A stretch of 64,000 bases of DNA from Planctomycetota bacterium (GTDB lineage: Bacteria > Planctomycetota > PLA2 > JAEUHO01), in NCBI GenBank assembly GCA_965222115.1, contig CBDCTJ010000007.1, positions 2,656,001 to 2,720,000 on the forward strand. The letters run 5' to 3'. The position numbers were made by a program, and so were the translations under genes. Below, piece by piece: positions 12,496 to 36,968 of this stretch. Position 1 is the first letter of the stretch, and each line of letters begins with the position of its first letter. The notes below the pieces were generated by a model. That model was given only the letters and a program-made list of their open reading frames with translations, was not told the DNA's origin and ran no database searches.

Positions 12496-12542
12496 GGGAT
12501 TCGATCATGGGCTCATGCGCGGCGACGCCATTCGCTCGTTTC

Positions 12543-12716
12543 CCCGTCACCCGAAACCCGAACTCAAGTGTGAGCGTCCGGTGATCGATTCGCGCCAGTT
12601 CGTGGACGTCAAGAGCAAATGGCTTTGCCATTTGCGCGAAGACCGTGAGTAAGCACCAGCAGATCTCTGATCCGCGCAGTGCGCATCGATCGGTGGACGT
12701 GGACGTACAAGTGGAC
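12543..12716 (+). repeat. Structured repeat module R, copy 1 (full; 1 internal GTGGAC)
   Basis: CCCGTCA CCCGAAA ladder, CTCAAGTGTGAGCGTCC, GATCGATTCGCGCC, GCAAATGGC-TTT-GCCATTTGC hairpin, GAGTAAGCACCAGC, GATCTCTGATCCGCGCAGTGCGCATCGA..GTGGACG. Confidence 0.9.
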
Positions 12717-12736
12717 AAAAGCGTGTATCGGAGAAG

Positions 12737-12782
12737 GACCCCAACGGGGTCACGTGTAATAGCCTGGGGTTTTAACCCCAGG
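12737..12782. repeat. REP-like double palindrome
   Basis: GACCCC-AAC-GGGGTC (12737-12751) and CCTGGGGTT-TT-AACCCCAGG (12763-12782). Confidence 0.6.
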
Positions 12783-12878
12783 TATAGTCGTCTCTTCTCT
12801 TTAGCGTTCTGTAGGGACGCCGCCCGACTGCATGCAAGTCCGAGTGAGCTCCTGCGATTTCTAATCTGCGCAGAACGC

Positions 12879-13041
12879 ACCGAACTGCTTGCTGTATGAC
12901 TTGAAAGTGCACGGGGCAACACCCTTTGGGAAGTGCTACGTGCATGCCCCACTCGCCACGAGGGCGAGGGCACGCACTCGCATTCCCGCGGGTGTTTCCT
13001 CGTGGAGCTTCTCGTATGTCATACAGCAAACAGTTCTCGGT
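12879..13041 (+). promoter_or_regulatory. Long leader hairpin (type A) overlapping the start of the four-helix-bundle gene
   Basis: 12882-12900 pairs with 13018-13036 (18/19); nested stems CACGGGGCAACACCC/GGGTGTTTCCTCGTG, GTGCATGCCC/GGGCACGCAC and CTCGCC/GGCGAG. Confidence 0.8.
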
Positions 13042-13402
13042 TACTTCCACGGCGGGTCGGCTTGAACGATTCGATGTGTATCGAATCGCACGTCGTGTCG
13101 CGGCCAGTATTCACCAGCTCTGTGGATCGCTGCCTCGAGGCAACGCCGAGCTTGCAAGCCAAGCTCGACGAGCCTCTACAGCCGTCGTCCTCAACATCGC
13201 GGAGGGTATCGGCCGCGCTGGCGCGGGCGCCAAACACCGCTCGTTCTCAATTGCTCGCGGTGAGTGCGTCGAGGCCGCCGCGGCACTCGACCTCATGCAG
13301 GCGATGGGCATTATCACAGGAGCCAGCGCCGCACCGACGCTTCATGATCTAGATCGCGTCCGCGCGATGCTGAATGCGCTGATCCGCCGCTGGCGGGAGT
13401 GA
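13016..13402 (+). CDS. Four-helix-bundle protein (bAvd / 23S rRNA IVP-like family), subfamily A copy 1
   Basis: 128 aa; RFDVY...LASQARRASTAVVLNIAEGIGR...FSIARGECVE matches the family signature; GGAG upstream of the ATG. Confidence 0.9.
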   Translation: MSYSKQFSVTSTAGRLERFDVYRIARRVAASIHQLCGSLPRGNAELASQARRASTAVVLNIAEGIGRAGAGAKHRSFSIARGECVEAAAALDLMQAMGIITGASAAPTLHDLDRVRAMLNALIRRWRE

Positions 13403-13468
13403 GGCACGCCCATTCGCAGCGAACCTCGCAAAAAGTGCCGGGTGTAATTTTGCACCGGTTAGCGCACT

Positions 13469-13845
13469 CCCGCCACCCGTCACCCGTTCCCCGAAACCCG
13501 TCACCCGGACTCAAGTGTGAGCGTCCGATAATCGATTCGTGTCGCGTTCAAAACGTGGACGTGGACGTGGACGTGGACGTGGACGTGGACGTGGACGTGG
13601 ACGTGGACGTGGACGTGGACGTGGACGTGGACGTGGACGTGGACGTGGACGTGGACGTGGACGTGGACGTGGACGTGGACGTGGACGTGGACGTGGACGT
13701 GGACGTGGACGTGGACGTGGACGTGGACGTGGACGTGGACGTGGACGTGGACGTCGAGAGCAGATGGGCGAAGCCCGTTTGCACGAGACCCTGAGCAAGC
13801 ACCAGAGGATCTGTGATCCGCGCGGTGCGCATCGAAGGGTGGACG
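13469..13845 (+). repeat. Module R copy 2 (full) containing (GTGGAC)33 at 13555-13752
   Basis: Five-heptamer ladder, CTCAAGTGTGAGCGTCC, perfect 198-bp hexamer array, GATGGGC-GAA-GCCCGTT hairpin, conserved 3' tail. Confidence 0.95.
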
Positions 13846-13858
13846 CCCTCGATGCCTA

Positions 13859-14551
13859 TCACGCACGGCGTGGCGGGCCGTCGAGGATGTCGGCGTGTGG
13901 CGCGTCTCTTATTGTCTTTCGTTCCGCTCCGCGTTCGCGGAGATGAAGAGTCAGGTCGACTACGATCTTCGCGATGACGAGAACAGCCAGGATGCCGATG
14001 GTGCTGTTGAAGAGCAAGACAACAAAGTTACCTAAAATAATGGCGAACTGCATGATAAAGATTCGCGTGTACGCCGCGGCCATGGGATCGAAGGATGCGT
14101 CCGCTGCCTGGACAACGTTCTTCTTAAAGTTCAAGGCATACGAAATGCCGTGGCTAACAAACATCGCGCCTATCACCAGAAGCCAGTGCGGTTCCAGTCT
14201 ACCAAGTGTATCGATCGTGTAGTTGAAGAACGAGTGGGACTTGGGTCGCGAAATCAGGATGCTGTTTGACCATGAAGGTCTCGTCAGTATCCACAGGAAC
14301 AATGCGTGTCCCACCATAAACCCACCGAAGTGCAGCGTGAAGAAGGACACGTCAAAGAACGCATTCCTTTTCCTCTTGAGTGAGAACAACTTCAGAATGG
14401 AGTAGAATCCGATGACGGCAGATTCGGCCCAGTATAGATAGAGCACCATGGCGAGGTCCCACCCCCCTGCCAGCACGCCGTAGAGTGGAATCAAGTTGAC
14501 GGCAATCAGTGTGAAGATTGCGAGTGGATGGGAGCGTGCAAATTGCGTCAT
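13859..14551 (-). CDS. Membrane protein, DUF6498-like
   Basis: NLIPLYGVLAGGW...LYWAESAVIG, FFTLHFGGF..GH and YTRIFIMQ pattern; multiple TM helices. Confidence 0.75.
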   Translation of the reverse strand: MTQFARSHPLAIFTLIAVNLIPLYGVLAGGWDLAMVLYLYWAESAVIGFYSILKLFSLKRKRNAFFDVSFFTLHFGGFMVGHALFLWILTRPSWSNSILISRPKSHSFFNYTIDTLGRLEPHWLLVIGAMFVSHGISYALNFKKNVVQAADASFDPMAAAYTRIFIMQFAIILGNFVVLLFNSTIGILAVLVIAKIVVDLTLHLRERGAERKTIRDAPHADILDGPPRRA

Positions 14552-14713
14552 GATCGCGAGACTCCTGAATCGGGAATGCATGTCAAGCGCAGTTCGAGTA
14601 TCGGGGGCATCGCATGGCGCAAAATTTCAGTTTCAGCATCCGAGGCGAATTTCTAGCCCCCTGCGGTGCGCTTCGGAAGGGACTCCGGTACGTGATTCGG
14701 TAAGCTCTCGACC

Positions 14714-15709
14714 ATGGCCAGCAGTTTCGGAAGCGTGTTCTGTTCGACGTATGCCCTCGCTACATTCGAGAGCGGGGGCTGGAGTCCATGGACGCTTGCG
14801 CCTGTGGCACCCATCTCGATTCATCCGGGGGCGCACGGGCTGCACTACGGAAGCAGTTGTTTCGAAGGGCTCAAGGCGTATCGCCGCGACGACGGACGAG
14901 TACACATCTTTCGCCTTGACCGGCATGTTGAACGCATGCAGGCGAGCGCAGAGGCTTTGCGGCTGCCCGTTCCCGATGCCTCGCAATTTCACGACATGAT
15001 CTATGCGTTGGTTGATCGGTGCCGCGATGAGGTTCCGGTCTATCCAGGCGCCCTCTACATTCGACCGATTCTCTTTGGCACGTTGGAGTCGGTTGGCGCG
15101 GCCGGATCCGCGAGCGACGAAGCGCAACTCGTTGTTTTGGTGTGTCCCGTGGGAGACTACTTTGAGGGCGGTATGCGACCGCTTCGTATAGCCACTGTCA
15201 CCGATCGTGCACGCGCCGCACCTGGATTCGGTTGCGTAAAGACGGGTTCGAACTATGCCGCGGCGCTGCGCCCTGTCCTCACCGCGAAGCGAGACCATGA
15301 CGCCGATCAAGTGTTGTTTTGTCCAGATGGCAACGTTCAGGAGACAGGCGCCGCCAACTTCATCGTGATTCACAACAAGACGGTGATTACCAAACCACTG
15401 GACGACACGATCTTGCACGGCGTCACCCGCGACTCCCTGCTGACGATTGCACCTTCACTTGGCTTCAATGTAGAAGAACGCGAGTTCTCCGTGGATGAGC
15501 TACTTACGTGGGCGCCGAACGCAGAAGCAGGTTTGTCCGGTACCGCGGCCGTACTTGCGCCGGTTGGCGTGCTCATTCACGAGGGCAAAGAGCACGTGGT
15601 GGGTGATGGGAGCATTGGTCCGAACGTCAGAAAGCTGCGTGAAGCATTGACCGCGATTCAATCCGGCGATGCCGAAGATGAGTACGGGTGGTTGCTGTCC
15701 GTGACGTAA
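14714..15709 (+). CDS. ilvE: Branched-chain amino acid aminotransferase (PLP class IV)
   Basis: LHYGSSCFEGLKAYR, LYIRP, KTGSNY, ETGAAN and ILHGVTRDS motifs. Confidence 0.93.
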   Translation: MASSFGSVFCSTYALATFESGGWSPWTLAPVAPISIHPGAHGLHYGSSCFEGLKAYRRDDGRVHIFRLDRHVERMQASAEALRLPVPDASQFHDMIYALVDRCRDEVPVYPGALYIRPILFGTLESVGAAGSASDEAQLVVLVCPVGDYFEGGMRPLRIATVTDRARAAPGFGCVKTGSNYAAALRPVLTAKRDHDADQVLFCPDGNVQETGAANFIVIHNKTVITKPLDDTILHGVTRDSLLTIAPSLGFNVEEREFSVDELLTWAPNAEAGLSGTAAVLAPVGVLIHEGKEHVVGDGSIGPNVRKLREALTAIQSGDAEDEYGWLLSVT

Positions 15710-15752
15710 CGCATGCATGTGCTACTCGACATATGTCCCGCGCTCATCGTTT

Positions 15753-15834
15753 CCCTTTTCCCGTTTCCCGTCACCCGGAATCCAGATTTGTGCCGGGTGC
15801 ATTTTCGCGCGCGGTGTGCATCGAAGGGTAGACG
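15753..15834 (+). repeat. Module R copy 3 (partial: heptamers plus 3' tail)
   Basis: CCCGTTT CCCGTCA CCCGGAA ... GCGCGGTGTGCATCGAAGGGTAGACG. Confidence 0.75.
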
Positions 15835-15835
15835 C

Positions 15836-16210
15836 TCATGGAACGTTGAATCGCCGCTGGAGGACGAACAACATCGCGGCGGTTCGCTCCAGCGTGTTCA
15901 TGACTCGCGAAACTTTGAGTTCACTCGAGAGACGGAGTAGGAGCGCGTGATGTAGAGCCGCGATGGCTTCGGTGCATTCGGCGTGTGCAATGTCGTAGGC
16001 CCTGCGCTTCTCGGCTGCCCGCCGTTTCGATAGGCCTTCGGCGACGTTTAGGGCAACGCTGGTGCTTGCGCGCCTGAGTTGATCGGCAAGTTTTGCGTTG
16101 CCTCGTGGCCACTCGGCGCAGATGGCGACGCACTCGACTGCCGCGGCCTGCGAAGCACGGTAGACGTCGAAGCGTTTGAGGTACTCGAGCGTTGAAGACG
16201 CGCTTGTCAT
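15836..16210 (-). CDS. Four-helix-bundle protein, subfamily B copy 1
   Basis: 124 aa; RFDVY...LADQLRRASTSVALNVAEG...YDIAHAECTE; GGAG SD 7 nt upstream. Confidence 0.9.
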   Translation of the reverse strand: MTSASSTLEYLKRFDVYRASQAAAVECVAICAEWPRGNAKLADQLRRASTSVALNVAEGLSKRRAAEKRRAYDIAHAECTEAIAALHHALLLRLSSELKVSRVMNTLERTAAMLFVLQRRFNVP

Positions 16211-16366
16211 GATGGAACTCCAGTTGAAGGGAACGCAAGCCGTTTGCTCGCGTGTGCCCTTCGCAAAAGAGCCGAAGGCGAAGGAGGGCACACGCGAGCG
16301 GGTCGTACAAACAGAGCCCGCGTGACAGCGACAACTCGTTCCCAAACTGGAGTTCCATCACAAGCG
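16201..16366 (-). promoter_or_regulatory. Long leader hairpin (type B) sequestering the SD and start codon
   Basis: 16201-16225 pairs with 16345-16366 with a 3-nt bulge at the start codon; inner stems GGGAACG/CGTTCCC and GCTCGCGTGTGCCCT/AGGGCACACGCGAGC. Confidence 0.82.
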
Positions 16367-16417
16367 GCGCCTGCGCGTACCGAACGCGCTATGGCAACCG
16401 GCGGTGCTGTCCAAGGC

Positions 16418-16657
16418 CCAGTCACCCTTCACCCGTTACCCGTTACCCGTAAACCGAATCCCAGACTCAAGGGTGAGCGTCGGATGGACGATTCGCGCCG
16501 TCTTTACGTGGACGTGGACGTGGACGTGGACGTGGACGTGGACGTGGACGTGGACGTGGACGTGGACGTGGACGTGGACGTGGACGTGGACGTGGACGTG
16601 GACGTGGACGTGGACGTGGACGTGGACGTGGACGTGGACGTGGACGTGGACGTGGAA
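16418..16657 (+). repeat. Module R copy 4 (5' half) with (GTGGAC)24 at 16508-16651
   Basis: Heptamer ladder, CTCAAGGGTGAGCGTCGG, GATTCGCGCC, perfect 144-bp array. Confidence 0.95.
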
Positions 16658-16673
16658 TCAGATTGGGTGCATC

Positions 16674-17474
16674 TTAGTCGTCGTCTTTCTTGGGTACGTC
16701 TTTCTCAATCCACGACGTAATCATGTACCGCACTTCGACCCATGAAAGCGTGATTGTGTACTCGCGCGTTAGATGCTCATAGGTTACGAGGTACTTTGCT
16801 TGTAGGGAGTCGTTTTCACCGGGCCCAAACGATGTGCGCATGAGATTCTTGAACGCGCCTTGTTTTCCATCGACGAGATCGATCTTGGTTGGCAGTGACT
16901 CACGCTCAATCATATCGCCCGATACGAACTTCGAGATGGTTTGAGGATTGCCTTGCGCGACCTGCTCAACGGCGCCGCGCATGGCGTCCTGTTCGAGCAG
17001 TTTCCGCTGTTCATCGCGGGCAGTGATTACGTGCTCAGCCTGTGCGGCGCGAGGGGTTAACGTGTAACGTGCGATTAGCCAGCGGCCGCCTGTGGCTGGA
17101 TTTCGCCTAAGATGAAACGTGGAATCAAGGATGACGTGTTCGCAACTCAGCGTAGCAAGTACCGTCTTTCGCGCCTTGCCTCCTGTTTCCGACACCTCCT
17201 CGATTCGAATGTCGTTTACCGCTCTCACGTTTCCGAATTGGGCTTGATACTGTTTCCGCTGTTCGCCGAATGCATGGGGGTGCCAATACACAAGAAGGGG
17301 CTTAGCGACATGTGGAAGTGTTTCGATGGAGTCATGCACCGCGTTGGACAACAGCGCCTTTGCGAATTCGGTAACGATGACCTCATGGGCGTCCTTCGTG
17401 GTTAGCGAGCTGATGGCGGCGAATAGCACACACGCCAACAACGTAAGCCCAAGCGCCTTGAATACGGGACCCAC
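16674..17474 (-). CDS. Hypothetical exported or membrane-anchored protein
   Basis: 266-aa ORF with an N-terminal hydrophobic helix; directly downstream of the dehydrogenase gene. Confidence 0.7.
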   Translation of the reverse strand: MGPVFKALGLTLLACVLFAAISSLTTKDAHEVIVTEFAKALLSNAVHDSIETLPHVAKPLLVYWHPHAFGEQRKQYQAQFGNVRAVNDIRIEEVSETGGKARKTVLATLSCEHVILDSTFHLRRNPATGGRWLIARYTLTPRAAQAEHVITARDEQRKLLEQDAMRGAVEQVAQGNPQTISKFVSGDMIERESLPTKIDLVDGKQGAFKNLMRTSFGPGENDSLQAKYLVTYEHLTREYTITLSWVEVRYMITSWIEKDVPKKDDD

Positions 17475-17485
17475 GGCGCGGCCTC

Positions 17486-18517
17486 CTACGAAGATGCCTT
17501 CGGCTGCTTCTTCACTTCTTCAACGATCGCGCGCGTGATGTCATCGGTGGTGCCATTCCCGCCTAGGTCAGGCGTCAATGCTTCCTTGCGATGGCTCGTT
17601 ACGGCGGCGACACCACGGCGAATGCGATGGTACGCATCTACATCACCCAAGTGATGACACATCATGGCAGCACTGAGAATCATTGCGATTGGATTGGCGA
17701 CACCTTTGCCCGCAATGTCTGGGGCGGTGCCGTGGATCGCCTCAAACACGGCGCACTCTGCCCCGTAGTTTCCGCCCGGAGCCAAACCGAGGCCGCCAAT
17801 CAGGCCGGCCGCCAGGTCGCTCACAATGTCCCCGTATAGATTTTCAAGAAGAAGAACGTCGTAACGGCCGGGATTGGTCACTAGGTGCATGCACAACGCG
17901 TCAACGAGGACATCGGTAAACTCGACGGTGCCCCTAAACGGTTCCGATGATTCTTCTGCACAGCGCAAGAACAGGCCATCCGCCTTCTTCATGATGTTTG
18001 CCTTGTGAACGGCAGTGACCTTCTTACGCTCCCAGCGCTTGGCGTAGGAAAACGCGAACTCGGCGATGCGACGACTGGCGCGATCTGTAATAACCTTTAG
18101 TGAGGTGACGACGCCCGGTGCAACCTCGTTCTCCATGCCGGCATAAAGGTCTTCCGTGTTCTCACGAACGATGACCAAATCGACGGGACCGTGCGACGTC
18201 TCGAGACCGGGAACCGTTTTCACCGGACGAACATTGGCGAACAGTTCGAGCGCTTTCCGCAGTCGAACGTTGGCAGATACGTGGCCACCGCCACTTGGCG
18301 TGGTCGTGGGTCCCTTGAGCGCTACCCCAATGTCCCGAACGAGATCCACCGTCTTTGTAGGCATGGCGTCGCCGTGCTTCTCAAGGGCGCACAGGCCGAG
18401 ATCAGCCTCGATCCAGTCAAAGTTCATCTCAGCAGCATCAAGCACGCGACGCGCTGATGCAGCCACCTCCGGGCCGATACCGTCGCCGGGTAGATAGACA
18501 ACACGTGTACCGCTCAT
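17486..18517 (-). CDS. Isocitrate/isopropylmalate dehydrogenase family protein (NAD-dependent IDH-like)
   Basis: PGDGIGPEV, IVRENTEDLY, VHKANIMK, NLYGDIVSDL and FEAIHGTAPDIAGKG motifs. Confidence 0.92.
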   Translation of the reverse strand: MSGTRVVYLPGDGIGPEVAASARRVLDAAEMNFDWIEADLGLCALEKHGDAMPTKTVDLVRDIGVALKGPTTTPSGGGHVSANVRLRKALELFANVRPVKTVPGLETSHGPVDLVIVRENTEDLYAGMENEVAPGVVTSLKVITDRASRRIAEFAFSYAKRWERKKVTAVHKANIMKKADGLFLRCAEESSEPFRGTVEFTDVLVDALCMHLVTNPGRYDVLLLENLYGDIVSDLAAGLIGGLGLAPGGNYGAECAVFEAIHGTAPDIAGKGVANPIAMILSAAMMCHHLGDVDAYHRIRRGVAAVTSHRKEALTPDLGGNGTTDDITRAIVEEVKKQPKASS

Positions 18518-18655
18518 GCGGGGTATCCTCCGAACACACCGCGTGGGGCGCGCGAAAAAAGGCTTTGTGAACGACGCAAAGTATCGAGCATTTCGCGGCG
18601 CGTAGCGAATTGTCCAGGCGCCCAATGCGCCCATTTCTGATGGAGACCGCCGATC

Positions 18656-20524: not shown

Positions 20525-20593
20525 GTGGCGGGAAGGAAGTAGATCCTGCGAAACAGGCCGGATGGAGTCTGAAGGATTCGTGCGTATTTCCTT

Positions 20594-20764
20594 ACCGTTA
20601 CCCGAAACCCGAAACCCGGGCTCAAGTGTGAGCGCTCAATGATCGATTCACGCCGGGTCGTCGAGAGTGAATGGCTTTGCCATTTGCACGAAGACCCTGA
20701 GTAAGCACCAGCGGATCTCTGATCCGCGCAGTGCGCATCAAAGGGTGCGCATCGAAGGGTGGAC
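20594..20764 (+). repeat. Module R copy 5 (full; no internal GTGGAC)
   Basis: CCCGAAA ladder, CTCAAGTGTGAGC, ATGGC-TTT-GCCAT hairpin, GCGGATC-TCT-GATCCGC, duplicated GTGCGCATC.AAGGG tail. Confidence 0.9.
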
Positions 20765-20807
20765 CTCAAGTAGCGTAATAGTCGTATGCGTTCGGTACCG
20801 ATGGACC

Positions 20808-20965
20808 ACCGAACTGTTTGCTGTGTGACGTGAACGCGCACTGGGCAACACCCTTTGAGAAGTGCTACGTGCATGCCCCATTCGCCATGAGGGCGAGGGC
20901 ACGCACTCGCATTCCCGCGGGTGTTTCCTCGTGGAGTTTCTCGTATGTCACACAGCAAACAGTTC
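20808..20965 (+). promoter_or_regulatory. Long leader hairpin (type A), second copy
   Basis: 20811-20829 is the perfect reverse complement of 20947-20965; same nested stems as 12879-13041. Confidence 0.82.
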
Positions 20966-21331
20966 TCGATTACTTCCACGGCAGGTCGGCTTGAACGTTT
21001 CGACGTGTATCGAATCGCACGCCGTGCCGCGGCCAGCATTCACCAGCTTTGTGGATCCCTGCCGCGAGGCAACGCCGAGCTTGCAAGCCAAGCTCGACGA
21101 GCCTCTACAGCCGTCGTCCTCAACATCGCCGAGGGCATCGGGCGCGCTGGCGCAGGCGCCAAGCACCGTTCGTTCTCCATCGCTCGCGGCGAGTGCGTCG
21201 AGGCCACCGCGGCACTCGACCTCATGCACGCGATGGGAATCCTTACAGGCGCCCACGCCGCGCCAACGCTTCGCGACCTTGACCGCGTTCGCGCAATGTT
21301 GAACGCGCTCATCCGGCGCTGGAGGGAATGA
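20945..21331 (+). CDS. Four-helix-bundle protein, subfamily A copy 2
   Basis: 128 aa; 8 substitutions relative to 13016-13402 by eye. Confidence 0.9.
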   Translation: MSHSKQFSITSTAGRLERFDVYRIARRAAASIHQLCGSLPRGNAELASQARRASTAVVLNIAEGIGRAGAGAKHRSFSIARGECVEATAALDLMHAMGILTGAHAAPTLRDLDRVRAMLNALIRRWRE

Positions 21332-21339
21332 GGGGGTGT

Positions 21340-21572
21340 CCCGTTACCCGAGACCCGTTACCCGGACTCAAGTGTGAGCCTCTGATGATCGATTCGCGCC
21401 GTTCGTGGACGTGGACGTGGACGTGGACGTGGACGTGGACGTGGACGTGGACGTGGACGTGGACGTGGACGTGGACGTGGACGTGGACGTGGACGTGGAC
21501 GTGGACGTGGACGAAACCCTGAGTAAGCACCAACGGATCTCTGATCCGCGCGGTGCGCACCGAACGGTGGAC
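21340..21572 (+). repeat. Module R copy 6 with (GTGGAC)18 at 21405-21512
   Basis: Heptamer ladder, CTCAAGTGTGAGC, perfect 108-bp array, CCCTGAGTAAGCACC...GTGGAC tail; first 3' hairpin deleted. Confidence 0.95.
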
Positions 21573-21578
21573 ATGATG

Positions 21579-22283: not shown

Positions 22284-22322
22284 CGCCGTACTATACCCGC
22301 TGGTTCACCCCGGAGTCGGTCC

Positions 22323-23147: not shown

Positions 23148-23157
23148 CCTCTCGGGC

Positions 23158-24339: not shown

Positions 24340-24363
24340 CCCCAGTGAGCTTCCTCGCGGTTG

Positions 24364-24466
24364 CCCGTTACCCGTGATGCGCGGCCCGACACCCGTTACC
24401 CGATACCCGGACTCAAACGTGAGCGTACGATGGTCGATCTGTGCAGCGCGCATCGAACGGTGGACG
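24364..24466 (+). repeat. Module R copy 7 (internally collapsed)
   Basis: Heptamer ladder, GGACTCAAACGTGAGCGTAC, joined to GCGCATCGAACGGTGGACG. Confidence 0.85.
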
Positions 24467-24467
24467 G

Positions 24468-24842
24468 TCAGGGACCGCCGAATTTGTGTTGAAGCACGAA
24501 CAACATGGCGGCGGCGCGTTCTAGGGTGTTCATCGCCTGCGACGTTGCGCGCTCGCTTGCGATTCCAAGCAGCTGGGCGTGATGCAGCGCAGCGATCGCT
24601 TCGGTGCACTCGGCGTGGGCGATGTCGTATGCCTTGCGCTTCTCGGCGGGGCGGCGCTTCGCCAGCCCCTCTGCGACGTTGAGTGCAACGCTGGTACTAG
24701 CGCGCCGGAGTTGATCGGCGAGTTTTGCGTGGCCTCGAGGCCATGTTGCGCAGAGCGCGACGCACTCGACTGCTGCTGCCTGCGAAGCACGGTAGACATC
24801 GAAGCGTTTGAGGTAATGGAGCGTGGAAGACGCGCTTGTCAT
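24468..24842 (-). CDS. Four-helix-bundle protein, subfamily B copy 2
   Basis: 124 aa; LADQLRRASTSVALNVAEG; antisense to the flanking carA and purA. Confidence 0.9.
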   Translation of the reverse strand: MTSASSTLHYLKRFDVYRASQAAAVECVALCATWPRGHAKLADQLRRASTSVALNVAEGLAKRRPAEKRKAYDIAHAECTEAIAALHHAQLLGIASERATSQAMNTLERAAAMLFVLQHKFGGP

Positions 24843-25000: not shown

Positions 25001-25041
25001 AGCCCGCGCGTAACGGTCGCGCATGCCTTGCCCGCGGCCCG

Positions 25042-25220
25042 CCCGGAATCCGTCACCCGTATCCCGTCATCCGGACTCAAATGTGGACATCCGATGATCG
25101 ATTCACGCCGGTTCGTGGACGTGGACGTGGAGAGCAGATGGGCGAAGCCCATTTGCGCGAAGACCCTGAGTAAGCACCAGCGGATCTCTGATCCGCGCAG
25201 TGCGCATCGAAGGGTGGACG
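25042..25220 (+). repeat. Module R copy 8 (full; (GTGGAC)2)
   Basis: Heptamers, GGACTCAAATGTG, GATGATCGATTCACGCC, GCAGATGGGC-GAA-GCCCATTTGC, conserved tail. Confidence 0.92.
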
Positions 25221-25250
25221 CAAATTGGTGCCGGGCGCGAACGTGCGTGC

Positions 25251-25351
25251 CCCGCGACCCGTTCCCCCGTACCCCGAGCCCCGATTCCCGTCACCCATCA
25301 CTCGTTACCCGACACCCGGTCGCCAGTGTGAGCGTTCAATGAACGACTTGC
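25251..25351 (+). repeat. Module R copy 9 (5' fragment, degenerate)
   Basis: About nine degenerate CCCGNNN units, then CAGTGTGAGCGTTCAATGAACGA. Confidence 0.75.
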
Positions 25352-25454
25352 AGTGCAAATTGCCACCGGGAGCGAACTCCGCGAATTGCGCTCATTTTGA
25401 GTCGTTCCCCGTCATCTGCCCGGGTAGAATCCGCTTTTACACGGAGAATGCGCC

Positions 25455-26777: not shown

Positions 26778-26806
26778 CGGCCTGGCACGAAAGAGGCACG
26801 TCGCGC

Positions 26807-27715: not shown

Positions 27716-27778
27716 TTGAACGCGTTAGAGTGGCCGGCCCTTTCGAAGACATATCATCAAAAGCACCACGAGTTCCAC

Positions 27779-28846: not shown

Positions 28847-29310
28847 GTGGCGGTTCCCCAACGGCTTCCGTATCGATTGTCGATTGCGTAGAGATTCCCG
28901 GAGGTAAGTCGGTTTTCGAGCGACGCATGCAAGCTGTGGCACACATGGCGGCTGCCTATGCCGGGTGTTCGTTGGAGCTCGTCTATGTGGTGCTTGGGGA
29001 CGACGAGATGCGCGCGCAGAACAAAGCTGCGCTCAACCATGACTATCCAACCGATGTGCTCTCCTTTGACATGGGTCACACACACGACATACGTCACGGC
29101 GAGATCCTTGTGTCGGCCGACACCGCCGTTCGTGAAGCAGCATCTCGCGCACACAGTGGGGCAGATGAGTTGTGCCTGTATGCAGTTCACGGCACACTCC
29201 ACTTCGTGGGGTACGACGATCACGATCCCGCCGATCGAAGACGAATGCGTGCTGCCGAGAGGCGATGGCTACGCCGATTGGGTTGCAATGCAATCTACGG
29301 ACGTCGGTAA
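28843..29310 (+). CDS. ybeY: rRNA maturation RNase YbeY
   Basis: PTDVLSF and [12 protein letters not shown] motifs; follows phoH. Confidence 0.92.
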
Positions 29311-29395
29311 TCGCCCCCGCCCTACTCACGCCCCCCGCGAATGATTGCCCTTTACGCCTCTCTCTCCGAGGATAGGGCGTCCTTCGGAGATCGTC

Positions 29396-30589: not shown

Positions 30590-30645
30590 GGTTCGCCTCC
30601 TAGCGGACAGTTTTCTGCACGTGGTTCCCGACTCTGTTTTCAGCG

Positions 30646-30759
30646 CCCGTATGCCGTTACCCGTTACCCGAGACCCGATACCCGATACCCGATACCCGAT
30701 ACCCGGTCTCAAGTGTGAGCATCCGATGATCGATTCGAGGCACGTTTAAGACGTGGACG
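30646..30759 (+). repeat. Module R copy 10 (5' half; 1 GTGGAC)
   Basis: Eight heptamers including (CCCGATA)4, CTCAAGTGTGAGCATCCGATGATCGATTCG, ends in GTGGACG. Confidence 0.9.
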
Positions 30760-30760
30760 A

Positions 30761-31135
30761 TCACGGTTCGTCGAATCGGCGCTGAAGTACGAACAACATG
30801 GCGGCGGATCGCTCCAAGCTGTTCATGACGAGTGAGATTGCGGCTTCGCTGGCGAGACCAAGCAATAGCGCGTGGTGTAGAGCGGCAATGGCCTCGGTGC
30901 ATTCGGCGTGTGCGATGTCGTAGGCCCTGCGCTTTTCGGCTGGCCGCCGTTTCGATAGGCCTTCAGCGACGTTTAGCGCAACGCTGGTACTTGCGCGCCT
31001 GAGTTGATCGGCGAGCTTTGCGTGGCCGCGAGGCCATGCGGCGCAGATTGCGACGCACTCGATCGCCGCGGCTTGCGAAGTACGGTAGACATCGAAGCGT
31101 TTGAGGTACTCGAGCGTAGAAGAGGCGCTTGTCAT
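30761..31135 (-). CDS. Four-helix-bundle protein, subfamily B copy 3
   Basis: 124 aa; same signature as the other B copies. Confidence 0.9.
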   Translation of the reverse strand: MTSASSTLEYLKRFDVYRTSQAAAIECVAICAAWPRGHAKLADQLRRASTSVALNVAEGLSKRRPAEKRRAYDIAHAECTEAIAALHHALLLGLASEAAISLVMNSLERSAAMLFVLQRRFDEP

Positions 31136-31291
31136 GATGGAACTCCAGATGAAGGGAACGCAAGCAGTTTGCTCGCGTGTGCCCTTCGCAAAAAAGCCGA
31201 AGGCGAAGGAGGGCACACGCGAGCGGGTCGTACAAAAAGAACCCGCGTGAAAACGACAACTCGTTCCCAAGCTGGAGTTCCATCACAAGCG
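31126..31291 (-). promoter_or_regulatory. Long leader hairpin (type B), third copy
   Basis: CGCTTGT-cat-GATGGAACTCCAG pairs with CTGGAGTTCCATC-ACAAGCG; inner stem conserved. Confidence 0.82.
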
Positions 31292-31342
31292 GCGCCCGCG
31301 CGTACCGTTTGCGCTGGAGCTACCGGCGGTGCTGTCCAAAGT

Positions 31343-31598
31343 CCCGTCACCCGTTACCCGTCACCCGTTACCCGTCACCCGTTCCCCGTGACCCGTACTC
31401 AAGGGCGGGCATCCGATGAACGATTTGCGCCGTCTTAACGTGGACGTGGACGTGGACGTGGACGTGGACGTGGACGTGGACGTGGACGTGGACGTGGACG
31501 TGGACGTGGACGTGGACGTGGACGTGGACGTGGACGTGGACGTGGACGTGGACGTGGACGTGGACGTGGACGTGGACGTGGACGTGGACGTGGACGTG
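31343..31598 (+). repeat. Module R copy 11 (5' half) with (GTGGAC)26 at 31440-31595
   Basis: Seven CCCGT(C/T)A-type heptamers, CTCAAGGGCGGGCATCCGATGAACGATTTGCGCC, perfect 156-bp array. Confidence 0.95.
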
Positions 31599-31610
31599 CG
31601 ATCTGCAATA

Positions 31611-31675
31611 CCCGTTACCCGAACCCCGTCACCCGCTACCCGGGCTCAAGTGTGAGGCTCCGATGATCGATGCGC
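31611..31675 (+). repeat. Module R copy 12 (5' fragment)
   Basis: Four heptamers plus GGGCTCAAGTGTGAGGCTCCGATGATCGATGCGC abutting the next gene's stop. Confidence 0.85.
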
Positions 31676-34342
31676 CTACTTATCCTCTTCTTGCGCAGGT
31701 ATCACGTACGCCCCCTGATGAACATCTGACGTGGTCATGGCGACGGTCTTTACAATCAGCCCTTCCCAGCCTTCGGCAGTGGAAAGCGTGATTTTGGCGC
31801 CGACTTTGCCGTCCTTTATGACGCCGCTTACGCGTGCAATGGCCCAGTCGTTCATGCGCTTGTGGTTCTCGCGAATGGTGGGGAAGGCCTCGGGGTCAAG
31901 CACGTTGGCGACACGCTTGGGTTTGTAGGCATTGGCGGTGCGAGGAAATTCGACGGAGATCTGCACGGGGGTGTCGTCAGGAAGGTCTGCCTTCGCGAGA
32001 ATGTTTAGGGTGACGGGCTCTTCGCCGCGTGCGGCGGTCACGTGAATATTGTTCTTTGGGAAGGCGATCTTTGTGGCGGGATCACCGAGCAAGATAAACA
32101 TCTCAGACGCTTCGCGCACCAGGCGGTCGGGGCTCACGCCGCCAACCATCATCTTGATGCCGAATCGAATCGCGGTAAGTCCGGGATCCGGCTTGGTGGG
32201 GGCGATGCACTCATCAATCGCATTGCGAATGACATCGCCCAGCCGCATGTTACCACCATCGCCGTGGAGGTAGCGGGTCATAGCGCGCGCAATGAGCGTA
32301 TTGGCCGCTGGGTGGCAGATGCGCGTTGCACCCCAAAAGGCAATCGGCCCCTGCGGGCGTTTCATGAGCGCCTCGCCGATACCGTCCCCGCGCTTCTGCT
32401 TTCGATCAAACTGCGCCGTTGTGCAGGCCAGCACCAATACGATGGGCTTTGTTCCCTTTACGTCAATCTGGGGTGCATGGCGGACGGTGAGAATGGGGAA
32501 GCGCCTTCCTCCCGCTTGAAGTTCATCAAAGCCCTCCGCAAAGCCGTGCCCAACGTAGGTATAGAACAGCGCTCCGTCGTTGACGCCCTTGATGACCTTT
32601 GCGTTGAACTCGGGCGGCGGCCAAAGAAACGGCGAACGCGCGCTCGCGAAGGTAACTTCGATGTCGTAGGCAGGCGGAATGCCATCGGCAACGACTTTGC
32701 GAAATGCGCTCTCCAGTAGCGTATCGACAATGGGGCCAAAGCGCCCTTCCGATGTGATGAATCGCATCATGCGCCGAGAAGCGTGCTTCGGCGGCGCGTT
32801 TTCATACTTAATCAGGCGATCGACAAATGCTTGTACATCCTTCGGCTCGCGAAACGGCAACCGACCCAAGGCGGGGCCCCCCGTGTGAACCACGCCACCC
32901 ACAGGACGTGTGTAGAGCCGATCTGAAGCAGTAGCGCCGTTGTACATCGTGCGGGCCATCGGTGTGGGGATGGTCCATGTCTTGGTAAAATCGGTGCGGT
33001 CATAGACTGCATCGCCGACAAGCAGTACATATTTGAGCGGTACATCTTTACGCTGCATCAAATGCACAATGAAGGCGCGGAGCGCTTCGGGTGTGTGCTC
33101 GCCATAGCCGAATCGGCTGTAGATCTCCGCGATGGACACGACGGTTGAGGGCGTACCCGTTTTCCCGCGATGATCCACAAGCGGCTTTACCGCGTCCAAG
33201 AGTTCGGGCACAGCAACGATGACGTGTTGTGTGCCCGAGGGAACCAGGAACTGATCTTCGGGTGCGAGTGTTCGTTTTGTCGGCGTCACTTCCGTTGCGT
33301 TTGTTGCCGCATACAGCACCGCATCGCTGGGAACATCAGGTATCAGATACGCGCCGTCCCGGGATCGCCAACGTGCAGGCATCGGGTAGGTGGACCCACG
33401 GCTGAGTACGAACGCAATGCCCTTGTCGGGTGCAGGCACCCGATCGCCGGAGGCAACGGGCACACGCGCGAAGGGCTCGTAGGTAAGTTGCTCCTCAACG
33501 GCCCCCATGGGTCCCACCAAATGAAACCCATCGATCCAAATCGAACCGTAACCAGCGGACATGTCATTTCGCGCGCGCGGAGGAAGCGATTTCGTCACGT
33601 CTCGAAGACGAATCGATTCGCGCATGTTGGGAATGGCCTTCGCGGGGACCTTCCACTCGAGGACGGCACCCCCCGACGCGCGCTGCGTTGTTGCAACACC
33701 GAGGTCCACATTGTTCCACGCCGCTTTAAGACTCACGGGGCCCGTGTGGGTTGCATACACATGTGCGCGCAAGATCTGTTCCTTGCCCCGTGCGGCGCCC
33801 ATGCCACCGAGCAACATGGAGCCCTCGCCAAGTGATTCCAGGCCCATCGCAAACCACACGGGACGATTGCCCGCATACACGGTTGGATCCGCCGAGGCAA
33901 GGGCGCCTAAGTAGTGGTCCGGTGCGTGAACGCGACGAAGAATTCGGGATTCGTTTCCGGTTGCAGGAACCGGATTTGGCTCCTCGGCCGTCCGATCCAC
34001 ATAGGAGGTGTGTTCGATTCGATACGTAGCTACACGACTGTGGGGTCCAGACGTAGACAGCGCCAAAAACACCAATTCGCCGTCCGCCAATATGCTCGGT
34101 ACGGGCACACCGCGCCGCGTGACGACAAGGTCCGATGGCTTCCCAGCGTCCAATGCACTCAACGCCTTGGTGGACACACGGTAAAACCCGTCAGTTGCCA
34201 CACGGATTTCGCCCACATTCCGAGTTTGCTGCTTGGCCACCTCTTTCGCTTCGCCACGCTGGGGTGTCCACACCACCGTGCCGATCGCTGCGACGAGCAA
34301 GAGAGACACGGGGAGCTCGAAGCGGGTACGGAGAAATCGCAT
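31676..34342 (-). CDS. C25 family (gingipain-like) cysteine peptidase, exported
   Basis: Signal peptide; YVLLVGD, ASDRLY, LGRLP, catalytic YVGHG and LACTT, and LLGDPA motifs. Confidence 0.88.
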   Translation of the reverse strand: MRFLRTRFELPVSLLLVAAIGTVVWTPQRGEAKEVAKQQTRNVGEIRVATDGFYRVSTKALSALDAGKPSDLVVTRRGVPVPSILADGELVFLALSTSGPHSRVATYRIEHTSYVDRTAEEPNPVPATGNESRILRRVHAPDHYLGALASADPTVYAGNRPVWFAMGLESLGEGSMLLGGMGAARGKEQILRAHVYATHTGPVSLKAAWNNVDLGVATTQRASGGAVLEWKVPAKAIPNMRESIRLRDVTKSLPPRARNDMSAGYGSIWIDGFHLVGPMGAVEEQLTYEPFARVPVASGDRVPAPDKGIAFVLSRGSTYPMPARWRSRDGAYLIPDVPSDAVLYAATNATEVTPTKRTLAPEDQFLVPSGTQHVIVAVPELLDAVKPLVDHRGKTGTPSTVVSIAEIYSRFGYGEHTPEALRAFIVHLMQRKDVPLKYVLLVGDAVYDRTDFTKTWTIPTPMARTMYNGATASDRLYTRPVGGVVHTGGPALGRLPFREPKDVQAFVDRLIKYENAPPKHASRRMMRFITSEGRFGPIVDTLLESAFRKVVADGIPPAYDIEVTFASARSPFLWPPPEFNAKVIKGVNDGALFYTYVGHGFAEGFDELQAGGRRFPILTVRHAPQIDVKGTKPIVLVLACTTAQFDRKQKRGDGIGEALMKRPQGPIAFWGATRICHPAANTLIARAMTRYLHGDGGNMRLGDVIRNAIDECIAPTKPDPGLTAIRFGIKMMVGGVSPDRLVREASEMFILLGDPATKIAFPKNNIHVTAARGEEPVTLNILAKADLPDDTPVQISVEFPRTANAYKPKRVANVLDPEAFPTIRENHKRMNDWAIARVSGVIKDGKVGAKITLSTAEGWEGLIVKTVAMTTSDVHQGAYVIPAQEEDK

Positions 34343-34425
34343 CGGCGTATCCTACGGGCCCGGCAGGCACATGATTCACCGTGGCAATTGCGAGCCGAGA
34401 GTGTTGGTCGTTCTAGGCTAGCCAC

Positions 34426-34608
34426 ATGTACTACGTTGGCCGCGCATTGCAGTTCTTCGGACTGATTCTCGTACCGTTCGCGCTGTACTACGGCCTCAAG
34501 GGCGGTGCGGCAAGGGGAGTGGCCCAGCGTGAACTCATGATGTTGGCAGCCGGGGCGCTCGCCTTCTGGCTCGGACGAGGGATCGAGGGGAAGTACGGCG
34601 GGTCGTGA
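34426..34608 (+). CDS. Small two-TM membrane protein
   Basis: 60-aa ORF with two hydrophobic helices (GRALQFFGLILVP), fills an intergenic gap. Confidence 0.65.
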   Translation: MYYVGRALQFFGLILVPFALYYGLKGGAARGVAQRELMMLAAGALAFWLGRGIEGKYGGS

Positions 34609-34618
34609 ATCAACGCGA

Positions 34619-35098
34619 CTAGCTGGCCGCGGCGGCTTCCTGTTCCTTCTTGAGGCGGATGATTTCTTCGGCCTCTTCGCTGGTGCGCGGGTGGAGCTGG
34701 ATCGCTTCCTTGATGCACACCGTGGTGCAGAGCATGTCGCAGCCCTTGCAGGCGTCGGGATCTACATGGGCGACGTTGAAGAAGCCATCGTCCACTTTCA
34801 CGTAGTTGATGGCGTCGTAGGGACATACGTCGAAGCAGAAATCGCACGCCGTGCATCGATCCGTGTTGACAATGGCGAGACGCTCTTTGTCCTGGCGGCG
34901 CTTGAAACGTGTGGCCACGTCGCCATTGAAATCGAGAATGGCTTCCGGCGGGCACACGTAGCCGCACAGGCCGCAATCCACGCAGATATCGGGGTGAATC
35001 ACGTGCATTTCACCGCGCACGCCCGAGATGGCGGTCACGGGGCAGGCCTTTTCGCAGGCCGTACATCCGATGCAGGTGTCGATGATCTCGTATGCCAT
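34619..35098 (-). CDS. Polyferredoxin with four [4Fe-4S] motifs
   Basis: CIGCTACEKACP, CVDCGLCGYVCP, CTACDFCFDVCP and CKGCDMLCTTVC. Confidence 0.92.
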   Translation of the reverse strand: MAYEIIDTCIGCTACEKACPVTAISGVRGEMHVIHPDICVDCGLCGYVCPPEAILDFNGDVATRFKRRQDKERLAIVNTDRCTACDFCFDVCPYDAINYVKVDDGFFNVAHVDPDACKGCDMLCTTVCIKEAIQLHPRTSEEAEEIIRLKKEQEAAAAS

Positions 35099-35234
35099 GG
35101 AGTGGCGGTCTCACAGGGGGGCGGTGTTGAGGCCGTGAGCATACCGGGAGGAGGCAATCTCTGCACGATTCCCGCCCTTGGCCAGACGGCGGGTCCATCT
35201 GGGCATAATCTCTTGAAGACCGTAGGAGCCCGCC

Positions 35235-35714
35235 ATGAGTGCATCGTCCCGCCTGATTATCGCCCTGATACTCCGCATCCTGCTACTGCTATTTGCGGGC
35301 TGGTTCGCCTTCGCGCCCGATGCCCTACCGGAAGGGGTCTCGATCGTCTCTCGTATTGGGCTCGCCACGGCCTTCTTGGTGCTCATGATGCTGATCGGCG
35401 AGGTCGGAACCATGCGTATGCACATGGGCATGCTCGTAAGTGCGCTGCGGGCCGGTGGCACACCCGGCGCGTCGGCCGCGGCCGTTGCAGCGACCGCGAA
35501 TGCCATGGGTGTGGGCGCCAGTGGCGGGACGCGCAATGACGCCGCCTCAGTAGACATTCTGATCCAGGCCCTCAAGACCAACGACGCCGACGTTCGCGCA
35601 AAGGCCCACGCCCACCTCACGCGCCTCACCGGCCAGACGATGCCCGACGACGTAGCGACCTGGCAAAAGTGGTGGGACGACAATCGAGATACGTTTCAAG
35701 CCAAGCAATCATGA
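35235..35714 (+). CDS. Hypothetical membrane protein with a HEAT-like C-terminus
   Basis: Two TM helices; LIQALK...VRAKAHAHLTRLTGQ...WQKWW tail; AGGAG SD. Confidence 0.75.
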   Translation: MSASSRLIIALILRILLLLFAGWFAFAPDALPEGVSIVSRIGLATAFLVLMMLIGEVGTMRMHMGMLVSALRAGGTPGASAAAVAATANAMGVGASGGTRNDAASVDILIQALKTNDADVRAKAHAHLTRLTGQTMPDDVATWQKWWDDNRDTFQAKQS

Positions 35715-36289
35715 GTCTCGTAAAGTCCTACGACGGATTCGAAACCAAACGTCTGAGATTGCGCGAGCCGCAGCTTGGCGATGCCCCCGTCATGTTTCGC
35801 AGATGGACGTCGGATCCACAAGTGGCGCGCTACGTTACGTATGAAACGCACCGCGAGATCTCAGAAACGGAAGACTACCTCGAGCGCTGCAGAACATTTT
35901 GGAGCGACCCCACGAGCCCGCACGCACAATTCATCCTTGTCCGCAAAGTGGAACAGGATGCTGTTGGCTTTATGGACCTCAGTCACAAGCGATCCTGCAT
36001 TGGGCTCGGCTACGTATTGGCGCGGGACGTGTGGGGGCAGGGTCTCATGACAGAGTTGATTGACACACTTTCGTCAGATTTGCTCGGACGCAAAGCGATC
36101 TACCGCGTGGATGCTACCGTCGATGTGGAAAACATTGCTTCGGCCCGCGTGCTAGAGAAAGCGGGGTTTCAACGCGAAGCTGTGCTTCGAAAGTACGGCA
36201 TGTGTCCCACCATTGGCCCCGAACCACGAGACTTGTGGATGTATGCGCGGGTGAAAGCACGATCGACGGGCGAAAGCGTTACGGTATGA
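35711..36289 (+). CDS. GNAT N-acetyltransferase (RimJ/RimL family)
   Basis: ETKRLRLR, LGYVLARDVWGQGLMTE and NIASARVLEKAGFQRE motifs. Confidence 0.92.
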   Translation: MSLVKSYDGFETKRLRLREPQLGDAPVMFRRWTSDPQVARYVTYETHREISETEDYLERCRTFWSDPTSPHAQFILVRKVEQDAVGFMDLSHKRSCIGLGYVLARDVWGQGLMTELIDTLSSDLLGRKAIYRVDATVDVENIASARVLEKAGFQREAVLRKYGMCPTIGPEPRDLWMYARVKARSTGESVTV

Positions 36290-36855
36290 GGCATTTCGAG
36301 GGGTTCGAGACCAACCGAACACGACTTCGCCGACCGGCGATTGAAGACGCCTCAGCTATCTACGAAGGTTGGACGTCGGATTCTGTCGTCACCAAGTATC
36401 TGACATGGAAACCCCACACGGCGCTTCGGGACAGCGAAGGGTTTCTGCAACACTGCCTAGAGCTCTGGGAATCAGCGAAGGCGACGCGCAGTCCGTACAT
36501 GATTGTTGCGCACGAAGACGATCGAGTCTTGGGTATGGTGGACATCCGACTGGCTCCCCGTCGGATTGCATTTGGCTATGTACTCGCGCGGCGGGAGTGG
36601 GGAAAGGGCATTATGACCGAGGTCGTTGGTGCCGTGGCCGATGCGGCGCTTGCACTAGACGACACTGTACAAAACGACACTGTACTAGGCGAAATTGTCC
36701 GCGTCGAAGCAACGACGAGCATCAAGAATATACCGTCTCAGCGTGTATTAGAACGGGCAGGGTTCGAGAGGGAGGGAATATTACGGTGTTATATGCACCA
36801 CCCGAACATTAGCGACGAGCCGTCGGATGTGTACATGTATTCGCGGGTGGAATAG
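36286..36855 (+). CDS. GNAT N-acetyltransferase (RimJ/RimL family), tandem paralog
   Basis: ETNRTRLR, FGYVLARREWGKGIMTE and NIPSQRVLERAGFEREG motifs. Confidence 0.92.
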   Translation: MRHFEGFETNRTRLRRPAIEDASAIYEGWTSDSVVTKYLTWKPHTALRDSEGFLQHCLELWESAKATRSPYMIVAHEDDRVLGMVDIRLAPRRIAFGYVLARREWGKGIMTEVVGAVADAALALDDTVQNDTVLGEIVRVEATTSIKNIPSQRVLERAGFEREGILRCYMHHPNISDEPSDVYMYSRVE

Positions 36856-36888
36856 CTTGTTTAAGATCAGGGTGGGCGCGATGCGTAT

Positions 36889-36968
36889 GCCGTCACCCGA
36901 TACCCGTCAGCCGACACCCGGACTCCACTGTGAGCATCCGAAGATCGATTCGCATCGAACGGTGGACG
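36889..36968 (+). repeat. Module R copy 13 (solo, collapsed, no cargo gene)
   Basis: Four heptamers, GGACTCCACTGTGAGCATCCGAAGATCGATTCGCATCGAACGGTGGACG. Confidence 0.85.

Follow-up and report, generated by a model that had tools for sequence, protein, structure and literature searches.

We describe a family of structured, non-coding, intergenic repeats, termed R, which surrounds the replication terminus of a Planctomycetota genome, is mostly oriented with the leading strand, and reverses its polarity at the predicted dif site. R was found in a 64,000-nt stretch of this genome (the window; contig C7, CBDCTJ010000007.1, positions 2,656,001-2,720,000), the assembly of which has a size of 4.55 Mb in seven contigs and a completeness of 90%. 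In this genome, both the replication-linked orientation and the confinement to the terminus are genuine. Our preferred, tentative reading is that R is a long-resident mosaic of small structured modules, resembling a bacterial interspersed mosaic element (BIME), which surrounds a multicopy gene family as its non-coding frame and has a fork-linked, strand-specific orientation. To our knowledge, a bacterial repeat family is rarely both restricted to the terminus and polar toward dif, which makes the pattern of R unusual. In a literature survey of papers without their supplementary files, no description of the R element was found. Positions that are given without a contig name refer to the window.

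R is modular. The left unit consists of an array of CCCGNNA heptamers, a hairpin (H1), a conserved linker, and an array of GTGGAC hexamers, and the right half contains a hairpin (HP2), the core hairpin (M2 + HP3), and a terminal motif T (GTGCGCATCGAAGGGTGGACG). These two parts are found jointly, singly, or fused as a short form, in which the left unit is joined directly to T. The (GTGGAC)n arrays of the window, located with Tandem Repeats Finder, are perfect and comprise 18 to 34 copies, and the heptamer arrays are imperfect. T is an imperfect inverted repeat of the linker, and in the full form another 76-281 nt of structured sequence lies between the two. It had been proposed in the original prediction, which was based on the window alone, that the ends of the element can pair (CGTCC..TCGAT..GCGC with GCGC ATCGA..GGACG); the duplexes computed for the 15 of 17 elements that could be parsed have energies of -7.9 to -30.8 kcal/mol. 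At all six loci of the window, R starts 36-65 nt past the stop codon of a co-oriented gene. The word GGAC-N-TCAAG recurs at the starts of modules, i.e. of the left unit, the right half, and the type-A gene cassette described below (e.g. 12556-12568, 12606-12616, and 20761-20772); it may be a recombination or cleavage site.

To quantify the orientation of R within the window, the motifs H1, CCCTGAGTAAGCACCA, and T were counted, and the values expected by chance were derived from shuffled sequences. All eight matches of H1 (0.00 expected), all five of CCCTGAGTAAGCACCA (0.33 expected), and all eight of T (0.02 expected) are on the + strand. They occupy six loci between 12543 and 36968, so that the uniform orientation that had been noted before is confirmed. 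For the genome-wide search, nhmmer was used with one R copy (20586..20765) as the query. The left unit had 37 matches, 35 of them on C7 between 2,274,478 and 2,939,324 and two on C3, and the right half had 38 matches, 28 of them on C7 (2.276-3.067 Mb) and ten on C1, C3, and C5; no R matches were found by nhmmer outside C7:2.27-3.07 Mb, C1, C3, and C5. Half of the right-half matches (19) represent a diverged "family 2", in which the core is present and the left unit is absent, and these cores are bounded on both sides by TCAAG-like words. The R pieces group into 28 loci, none of which contains pieces on both strands.

On C7, the cumulative GC skew is lowest at ~0.58 Mb and highest at ~2.76-2.78 Mb. 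Using a dif pattern, we found a dif-like site (..GATAA TCTATA TTATGTT..) at C7:2,773,937-2,773,965, i.e. exactly at the GC-skew maximum. The octamer GGTGGGGG, counted with the R loci masked, is present 312 times on the leading and 7 times on the lagging strand (98% skew), and its orientation flips between 2,772,912 and 2,775,896. Judged by this distribution, it is a strong candidate for the FtsK-orienting word of the organism, i.e. a word similar to the FtsK-orienting polar sequences (KOPS) of other bacteria. The R loci are clustered around the same point: 26 of the 28 are on C7, from 500 kb to the left to 165 kb to the right of the dif-like site, and the other two are on C3, a contig that is unplaced relative to dif.

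Co-orientation with the leading strand was observed for 24 of the 28 loci (binomial p = 1.8e-4, calculated over loci that are possibly non-independent) and for 34 of the 37 left-unit matches. The orientation flips between the two loci nearest to dif, at C7:2,754,784 (+) and 2,813,528 (-), and this interval brackets the dif-like site as well as the octamer flip. The mapping of R copies onto the replichores, which had been proposed together with the original prediction, thus supports it. The four exceptions are at C7 2,443,632; 2,603,556; 2,727,961; and 2,743,933. The octamers that surround them are normally oriented, and therefore the exceptions are not local inversions. For comparison, we estimated the strand distribution of open reading frames (ORFs), using crude ORF calls: 194 of 338 (57%) are on the leading strand to the left of dif, and 123 of 208 (59%) to the right. 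When the R loci were sorted by the type of gene junction, again with these crude calls, the leading strand was followed at 11 of 12 convergent, 11 of 13 tandem, and 2 of 3 divergent junctions.

R frames a gene family. Profile searches yielded 18 matches to PF05635 in the genome, all of them on C7 between 2,274,590 and 2,848,013, and according to the module map each of the 18 genes has direct copies of the left unit, or of the full R, on either side. The proteins encoded in the window match PF05635 with E-values of 1e-17 to 4e-19 and TIGR02436 with scores of 72.6 and 61.8 bits (cut-off 24). Two types of these four-helix-bundle genes can be distinguished, i.e. type A, which is co-oriented with R, and type B, which is opposed to R; the proteins of the two types share ~40-43% identity. 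Several loci consist of a divergent pair in the order B, left unit, A. Genes of both types have a leader hairpin of ~150 nt, the 3′ strand of which contains the start codon, and for type A the outer stem has been kept via a two-sided change between two copies (12892-13035 vs 20821-20964). Perfect hexamer arrays (4 to 33 copies) and heptamer arrays are located directly upstream of A and B genes. Neither A nor B proteins had a match in PADLOC, and we know of no role for PF05635 ("23S rRNA IVS protein", IVS standing for intervening sequence) outside diversity-generating retroelements.

Five of these genes lie among the R copies of the window and had been overlooked in the original prediction, which had assumed that the repeats carry cargo genes. 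This assumption did not hold, because the genes between the R loci are housekeeping genes, i.e. they encode nuoLMN-type antiporter subunits, isocitrate dehydrogenase, carA, purA, cdsA, phoH, ybeY, and a Ser/Thr kinase. R thus frames a resident gene family and encloses no cargo.

The family of genes and repeats is old. The DNA identities between the four-helix-bundle paralogues are 75-96%. The mean number of synonymous substitutions per site (dS) is 0.64 for type A (21 pairs) and 0.70 for type B (45 pairs), and the median ratios of non-synonymous to synonymous substitutions (dN/dS) are 0.064 and 0.129, respectively. A Jukes-Cantor conversion of dS yields a neutral expectation of ~56% identity for the non-coding parts. 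The observed identities, 86% for the right half (16 copies) and 76% for H1 plus linker (37 copies), are above this neutral prediction at a dS of about 0.65, showing that the family is old and that the genes as well as the non-coding parts are constrained or homogenised. Copies of this age and constraint argue against a recently active miniature inverted-repeat transposable element (MITE). Four sequencing runs, all of one study and available as contigs, contain the sequence, and no RNA run is listed among them. Their low-depth contigs break off at the repeats, and the joints have short sides, as repeats typically give.

The R copies of the window, all of them on the + strand, were assigned by motif searches and the module map if not stated otherwise, the arrays by the repeat finder, and the genes by profile matches. 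The first copy (12543..12699; also found by nhmmer) is a full form without a hexamer array, i.e. it consists of heptamers, H1, linker, HP2, core hairpin (M2+HP3), and T. It is followed by the leader hairpin of a type-A gene (12892..13035, +), read from the sequence, with the outer stem GAACTGCTTGCTGTATGAC / GTCATACAGCAAACAGTTC and the ATG at 13016 in the 3′ strand, and by the gene itself (13016..13402, +; PF05635 / TIGR02436), which is co-oriented with R. The next copy (13469..13845) contains six heptamers, H1, the linker, (GTGGAC)33 at 13555-13752, the core hairpin, and T. At the second locus, a partial R with heptamers and T (15760..15834; search with motif T) precedes a type-B gene (15836..16210, -), which is opposed to R and the start codon of which is buried by a leader hairpin at ~16196-16360, and a left unit with heptamers, H1, linker, and (GTGGAC)24 follows (16432..16656).

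The copy that was used as the nhmmer query (20586..20765; sequence reading and nhmmer) is likewise a full form without a hexamer array. Downstream of it are a type-A gene (20945..21331, +) and an R copy with (GTGGAC)18 and without HP2 (21340..21573). A short form (24385..24466), in which heptamers, H1, and linker run directly into T, is a long imperfect palindrome, as the duplex computation showed. It adjoins a type-B gene (24468..24842, -), beyond which an R copy with left unit, core hairpin, and T (to 25220) is followed by an extra left unit (25266-25349), together spanning 25050..25349 (also found by nhmmer). The fifth locus starts with a left unit of seven heptamers, H1, and linker (30660..30741). 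A type-B gene is next (30761..31270, -), given as the longest ORF, the true start of which is probably internal, and then a left unit with eight heptamers and (GTGGAC)26, to which five heptamers and H1 are added (31343..31662). The last copy is a solo short form, i.e. a left unit fused to T (36897..36968; motif searches, nhmmer, and duplex computation).

Two further observations were made close to the first copy. Just upstream of it, a tandem repeat of 138 nt, present 2.4 times (12171-12496), forms the end of an ORF without a Pfam match (11116-12495, +). On the - strand at 12737-12782, a sub-threshold match to Acido-Lenti-1 (RF01687) was obtained, with 25 bits vs a gathering score of 37; this small hairpin resembles an insertion of ~25 nt relative to the paralogous spacer 20766-20810.

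The R arrays end in the right half, the core of which is a hairpin of ~50 nt with a conserved internal loop. We searched a species-level genome collection with the pattern CCTGAGTAAGC-N20-30-GCGCATCGAAGG and found 40 loci, which belong to Bacteroidota, Acidobacteriota, Ignavibacteriales, Balneolaceae, Gemmatimonadaceae, one Bdellovibrionales metagenome-assembled genome (MAG), and one other Planctomycetota MAG. Of the 401 genomes sampled within the phylum, one contains the pattern, namely the genome studied here. Four foreign genomes have 4 to 25 exact core copies each, including 50-nt tandem arrays. In 65 distinct cores, the internal loop is invariant, and a base pair of the outer stem P1 (UA 32, CG 26, UG 6) as well as one of the inner stem P2 (CG 57, UA 7) covaries. 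The fold is more stable on the + than on the - strand for 24 of 32 own copies (7 show the reverse) and for 39 of 47 external copies.

The Rfam scan that had been suggested with the original prediction gave no match at the gathering score in the whole window. At E <= 10, nothing was found on the R modules in the region 12400-14000, where the sub-threshold Acido-Lenti-1 lies beside them, and at E <= 1 the core remained unmatched in 18 external loci. A 29-mer representing helix 13 of Thermus 23S rRNA was used beside the sarcin/ricin loop in PMC4227780, and the 5′ strand of the core, CCUGAGUAAGC, is identical over 11 nt to this construct as given there. Derivation of the core from helix 13 of its host was considered and rejected, because the host helix differs in this genome and in genome G415; the likeness is thus one of motifs, and the core does not represent a copy of the host rRNA. 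From its sequence, the loop may be read as a bulged-G (S-turn) motif and, if this reading is right, the core would act as RNA.

In 5 of the 33 foreign loci that were scanned for ORFs, the core has a small GIY-YIG ORF as a neighbour, and in the Acidobacteriota loci a tRNA is located upstream of the core motif on the same strand. Five Acidobacteriota MAG loci (L025, L031, L033, L044, and L046) have tandem core hairpins with a period of ~90 nt downstream of a tRNA gene, and in L025 and L031 a small GIY-YIG ORF of the same orientation lies between the hairpins. In the Bdellovibrionales MAG, the core pattern (L023:601-644, +) is inside, and on the opposite strand of, an RNase P RNA gene (566-1030, -) that is ~100 nt longer than the model; either chance or an insertion could account for this match.

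A search of 40 relatives, all of them from other genera, gave no R DNA. In metagenome contigs no close relatives were found, the best identities being 33-51% in partial matches. Homologues of type A (33-44% identity) are encoded in 4 of 30 relatives. One genome of the same order and a different family, G026, has 18 PF05635 genes, which form divergent pairs. The spacer of its locus L067 contains, in this order, (GGGWTC)n G-tract arrays, a hairpin, a linker (GAGTGATCGACTCCCGCG), CGTGAA repeats, and leader hairpins that bury the start codon, and the linker pattern is present in 24 exact copies at 16 loci.

To evaluate whether R belongs to a known class of mobile elements, we searched for the respective enzymes. 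Two Y1_Tnp genes (PF01797) are encoded at C7:1,411,691 and 1,066,506, both more than 0.8 Mb away from any R copy. The flanks of these genes share only 12-13-mers with R (E >= 0.098). One of them (C7:1066280-1067502) is similar to RAYT, i.e. a transposase associated with repetitive extragenic palindromic (REP) sequences, and is flanked by inverted copies of its own repeat of 60-115 nt, which is of the type GC.TTTGCTCCCGGCAC. This repeat is present at 12 loci genome-wide, two of which adjoin R loci (C3:440796 and C7:2654897). By eye, short GTGCCGGG.G.AAAT words, similar to this repeat, precede many heptamer arrays. For Y2_Tnp (IS91-type rolling-circle) no match was obtained in the genome, a weak negative because control genomes were also blank. 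Small GIY-YIG genes were not found in this genome, the sole match being an open frame of 608 aa.

Seven reverse transcriptase matches were found, six of which belong to two group II intron families with three near-identical copies each (C7 881482, 2631845, and 3037923; C3 81659, C7 1984989, and 1004494). With 97-99.7% identity the introns look recently active, unlike the old R copies. Their ends were rejected as a source of R, as the resident introns share nothing with it. The seven tyrosine recombinase matches (PF00589) are all away from R loci, and the closest of them to any R piece (C7:2,445,157) is part of an island with an integrase and an insertion sequence (IS). These searches linked no enzyme to R. 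An integron or an integron-like cluster without integrase (CALIN) was rejected, because housekeeping genes lie between the copies and the consensus lacks boxes of the GTTRRRY type. Motif T as a dif-like Xer site was rejected as well, since the dif-like site of the genome has a different XerC-side arm. The same is true for R arrays as KOPS, because the R words GTGGACGT (172 vs 116) and GGGTGGAC (76 vs 73) are not skewed, in contrast to GGTGGGGG (312 vs 7). Contig C6 (48,116 bp) has a GC content of 0.40 vs 0.59 in the rest of the assembly and may be foreign, extrachromosomal, or the result of erroneous binning.

Comparison with known systems revealed partial similarities. REPs are mostly located downstream of genes, between convergent or unidirectional genes, and classical REP dimers are mostly arranged head-to-head, according to PMC3733652. 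R is similar to REPs, BIMEs, and the REPIN-RAYT system (REPINs being REP-based hairpin elements), as it consists of short extragenic palindromic modules in mosaics, mostly downstream of genes, and its persistence is long-term, as for REPINs, and not a burst. In contrast to these systems, R is far longer, has two microsatellites, frames protein-coding genes, and does not flank a RAYT gene; the RAYT-like gene (C7:1,066,506) has another repeat on its flanks. Unlike classical REPs, R is also restricted to the terminus and polar. With IS200/IS605 elements R shares hairpin-rich ends, a fork-tied orientation, and a folding strand that would be on the lagging-strand template, but it has no associated TnpA or TnpB, no defined target word was noticed by eye, and its copies are old and constrained.

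PMC4990558 describes the Coxiella IVS as selfish and places it in helix 45 of 23S rRNA. The R-framed genes resemble it in that they encode a PF05635 / TIGR02436 protein and that a small ORF is associated with a long stem. However, all 18 genes are intergenic, and the stem buries the start codon instead of enclosing the ORF. The single 23S gene of the genome (C7:2,146,135-2,149,887) has 3753 nt vs 2925 positions of the model and contains an ORF for a LAGLIDADG endonuclease (L115:3801-4259), and thus it probably contains an intron. R is also similar to Ter fork-trap sites (Tus/RTP) and KOPS in that it is clustered around dif and its polarity reverses there, a geometry that fits 24 of the 28 loci, but R does not contain the KOPS-like word of this genome. 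Simple-sequence contingency loci offer a parallel to the hexamer and heptamer arrays of R, which are directly upstream of the A and B genes. In summary, membership of R in IS200/IS605, the REPINs, the integrons, the IVSs in rRNA, or KOPS fails at least one defining feature in each case.

In our preferred reading, the left unit would be a shared regulatory region of the divergent B/A pairs, with two microsatellites of variable length, and the right half may act as an RNA 3′ hairpin; both roles are predicted from the sequence. The top strand would be the folding strand, and in co-oriented loci it would be the lagging-strand template, which is why a strand-specific process at the fork appears to be the likeliest cause of the orientation. 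Copies may arise on the lagging-strand template by a single-strand hairpin process, or they may survive only in that orientation. By analogy, R would work like the single-strand hairpin elements IS200/IS605 and REPIN without membership in either.

Several results weigh against this reading. The confinement to the terminus is not predicted by a strand-specific mechanism, and the number of loci is 28 with possible dependence among them. The solo cores of family 2 show no bias (about 11 vs 8 by our own count). In G026, 9 of the 16 loci are co-oriented with the local GC skew (20-80 kb), 6 are opposed, and 1 is unclear, so that there is no replichore bias, and the replichore rule is not a general property of such systems. 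An nhmmer profile of the left core of R found nothing at E <= 10 in nine loci from four relatives including G026, and the likeness between R and the G026 unit is therefore architectural and by eye only. A scan of one B/A locus for sigma-70-like promoters and intrinsic terminators yielded no sites. The flanks of the copies differ, and neither a conserved target word nor a target duplication was apparent at the R ends, as judged by eye from alignments in which the left end is blurred by the heptamer array; moreover, no Y1, Y2, or small GIY-YIG gene is located next to any copy.

Four other explanations were weighed against the same results. R could be a non-autonomous single-stranded DNA transposon, i.e. 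a MITE derived from IS200/IS605 or a REPIN, which is mobilised in trans by an HUH Y1 enzyme and inserts into the lagging-strand template. The orientation bias with its flip at dif, the paired ends, and the several hairpins fit, IS608 and ISDra2 target the lagging-strand template (PMC6006769), and the genome encodes two Y1_Tnp proteins, one of them RAYT-like with flanking inverted repeats of its own, and two members of this repeat family adjoin R loci. We nevertheless consider this explanation rather doubtful, because no R piece is near either Y1 gene and the matches of their flanks to R do not exceed 12-13-mers, the R copies show age and constraint, a conserved target tetranucleotide was not seen, and neither the terminus confinement nor the unbiased G026 would be expected. 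Of the original prediction, the replication-linked orientation is therefore retained, and the assignment to IS200/IS605 or MITEs is not. An unlikely explanation is selection on chromosome architecture, by which ~30 recombining repeats in 700 kb would be tolerated only in direct orientation within a replichore and in inverted orientation across dif, as recombination between inverted copies within a replichore would flip gene and skew orientation. This is the pattern observed, the age of the copies makes long-term filtering plausible, and there is no bias among the solo short cores, on which recombination would act less well. Yet the R copies, being short and only 76-86% identical, are poor substrates, there are four persisting exceptions, mixed orientations are tolerated in G026, and the terminus confinement is left unexplained.

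If R were an RNA element, i.e. an untranslated region, processing site, or stabiliser of the four-helix-bundle and upstream transcripts, it might be co-oriented to avoid head-on conflicts, as are highly expressed genes. The conserved internal loop, the 11-nt identity with the Thermus helix-13 construct (PMC4227780), the stronger fold on the + strand, the short distance to the stop codon of a co-oriented gene at all six window loci, and a co-oriented ORF upstream of all four exception loci are compatible with such a role. The gene-strand bias of 57-59%, however, is far from the 86% of R, and at junctions called convergent either orientation would be downstream of a gene, yet 11 of 12 follow replication; we regard this explanation as quite improbable. 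Very improbable, in our view, is a terminus-domain system, in which the R copies would be polar, protein-bound sites less than ~0.5 Mb from dif that act on forks or segregation, as a fork trap or a Ter-domain organiser derived from the IVS/Avd-type family. It would account for the Ter-like geometry, with ~28 loci within 0.5 Mb of dif and opposite polarity on either side, and the 18 conserved genes beside the sites encode a candidate for the protein that would bind them. On the other side, four sites are wrongly oriented, the module content differs among loci, G026 lacks polarity, and the R words are unskewed across the genome and distinct from the KOPS-like word. We know of no IVS/Avd-type terminus-domain system in the phylum.

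The replichore pattern of R pits replication-coupled insertion, orientation-dependent survival, and a terminus-domain function against one another. The core hairpin of ~50 nt is a candidate for a new structured motif, which is absent from Rfam, is multicopy in Bacteroidota, Acidobacteriota, and other phyla, and is sometimes located beside small GIY-YIG genes. For the uncharacterised family PF05635, the 18 conserved paralogues, tied to defined structured repeats, offer concrete candidate binding partners.

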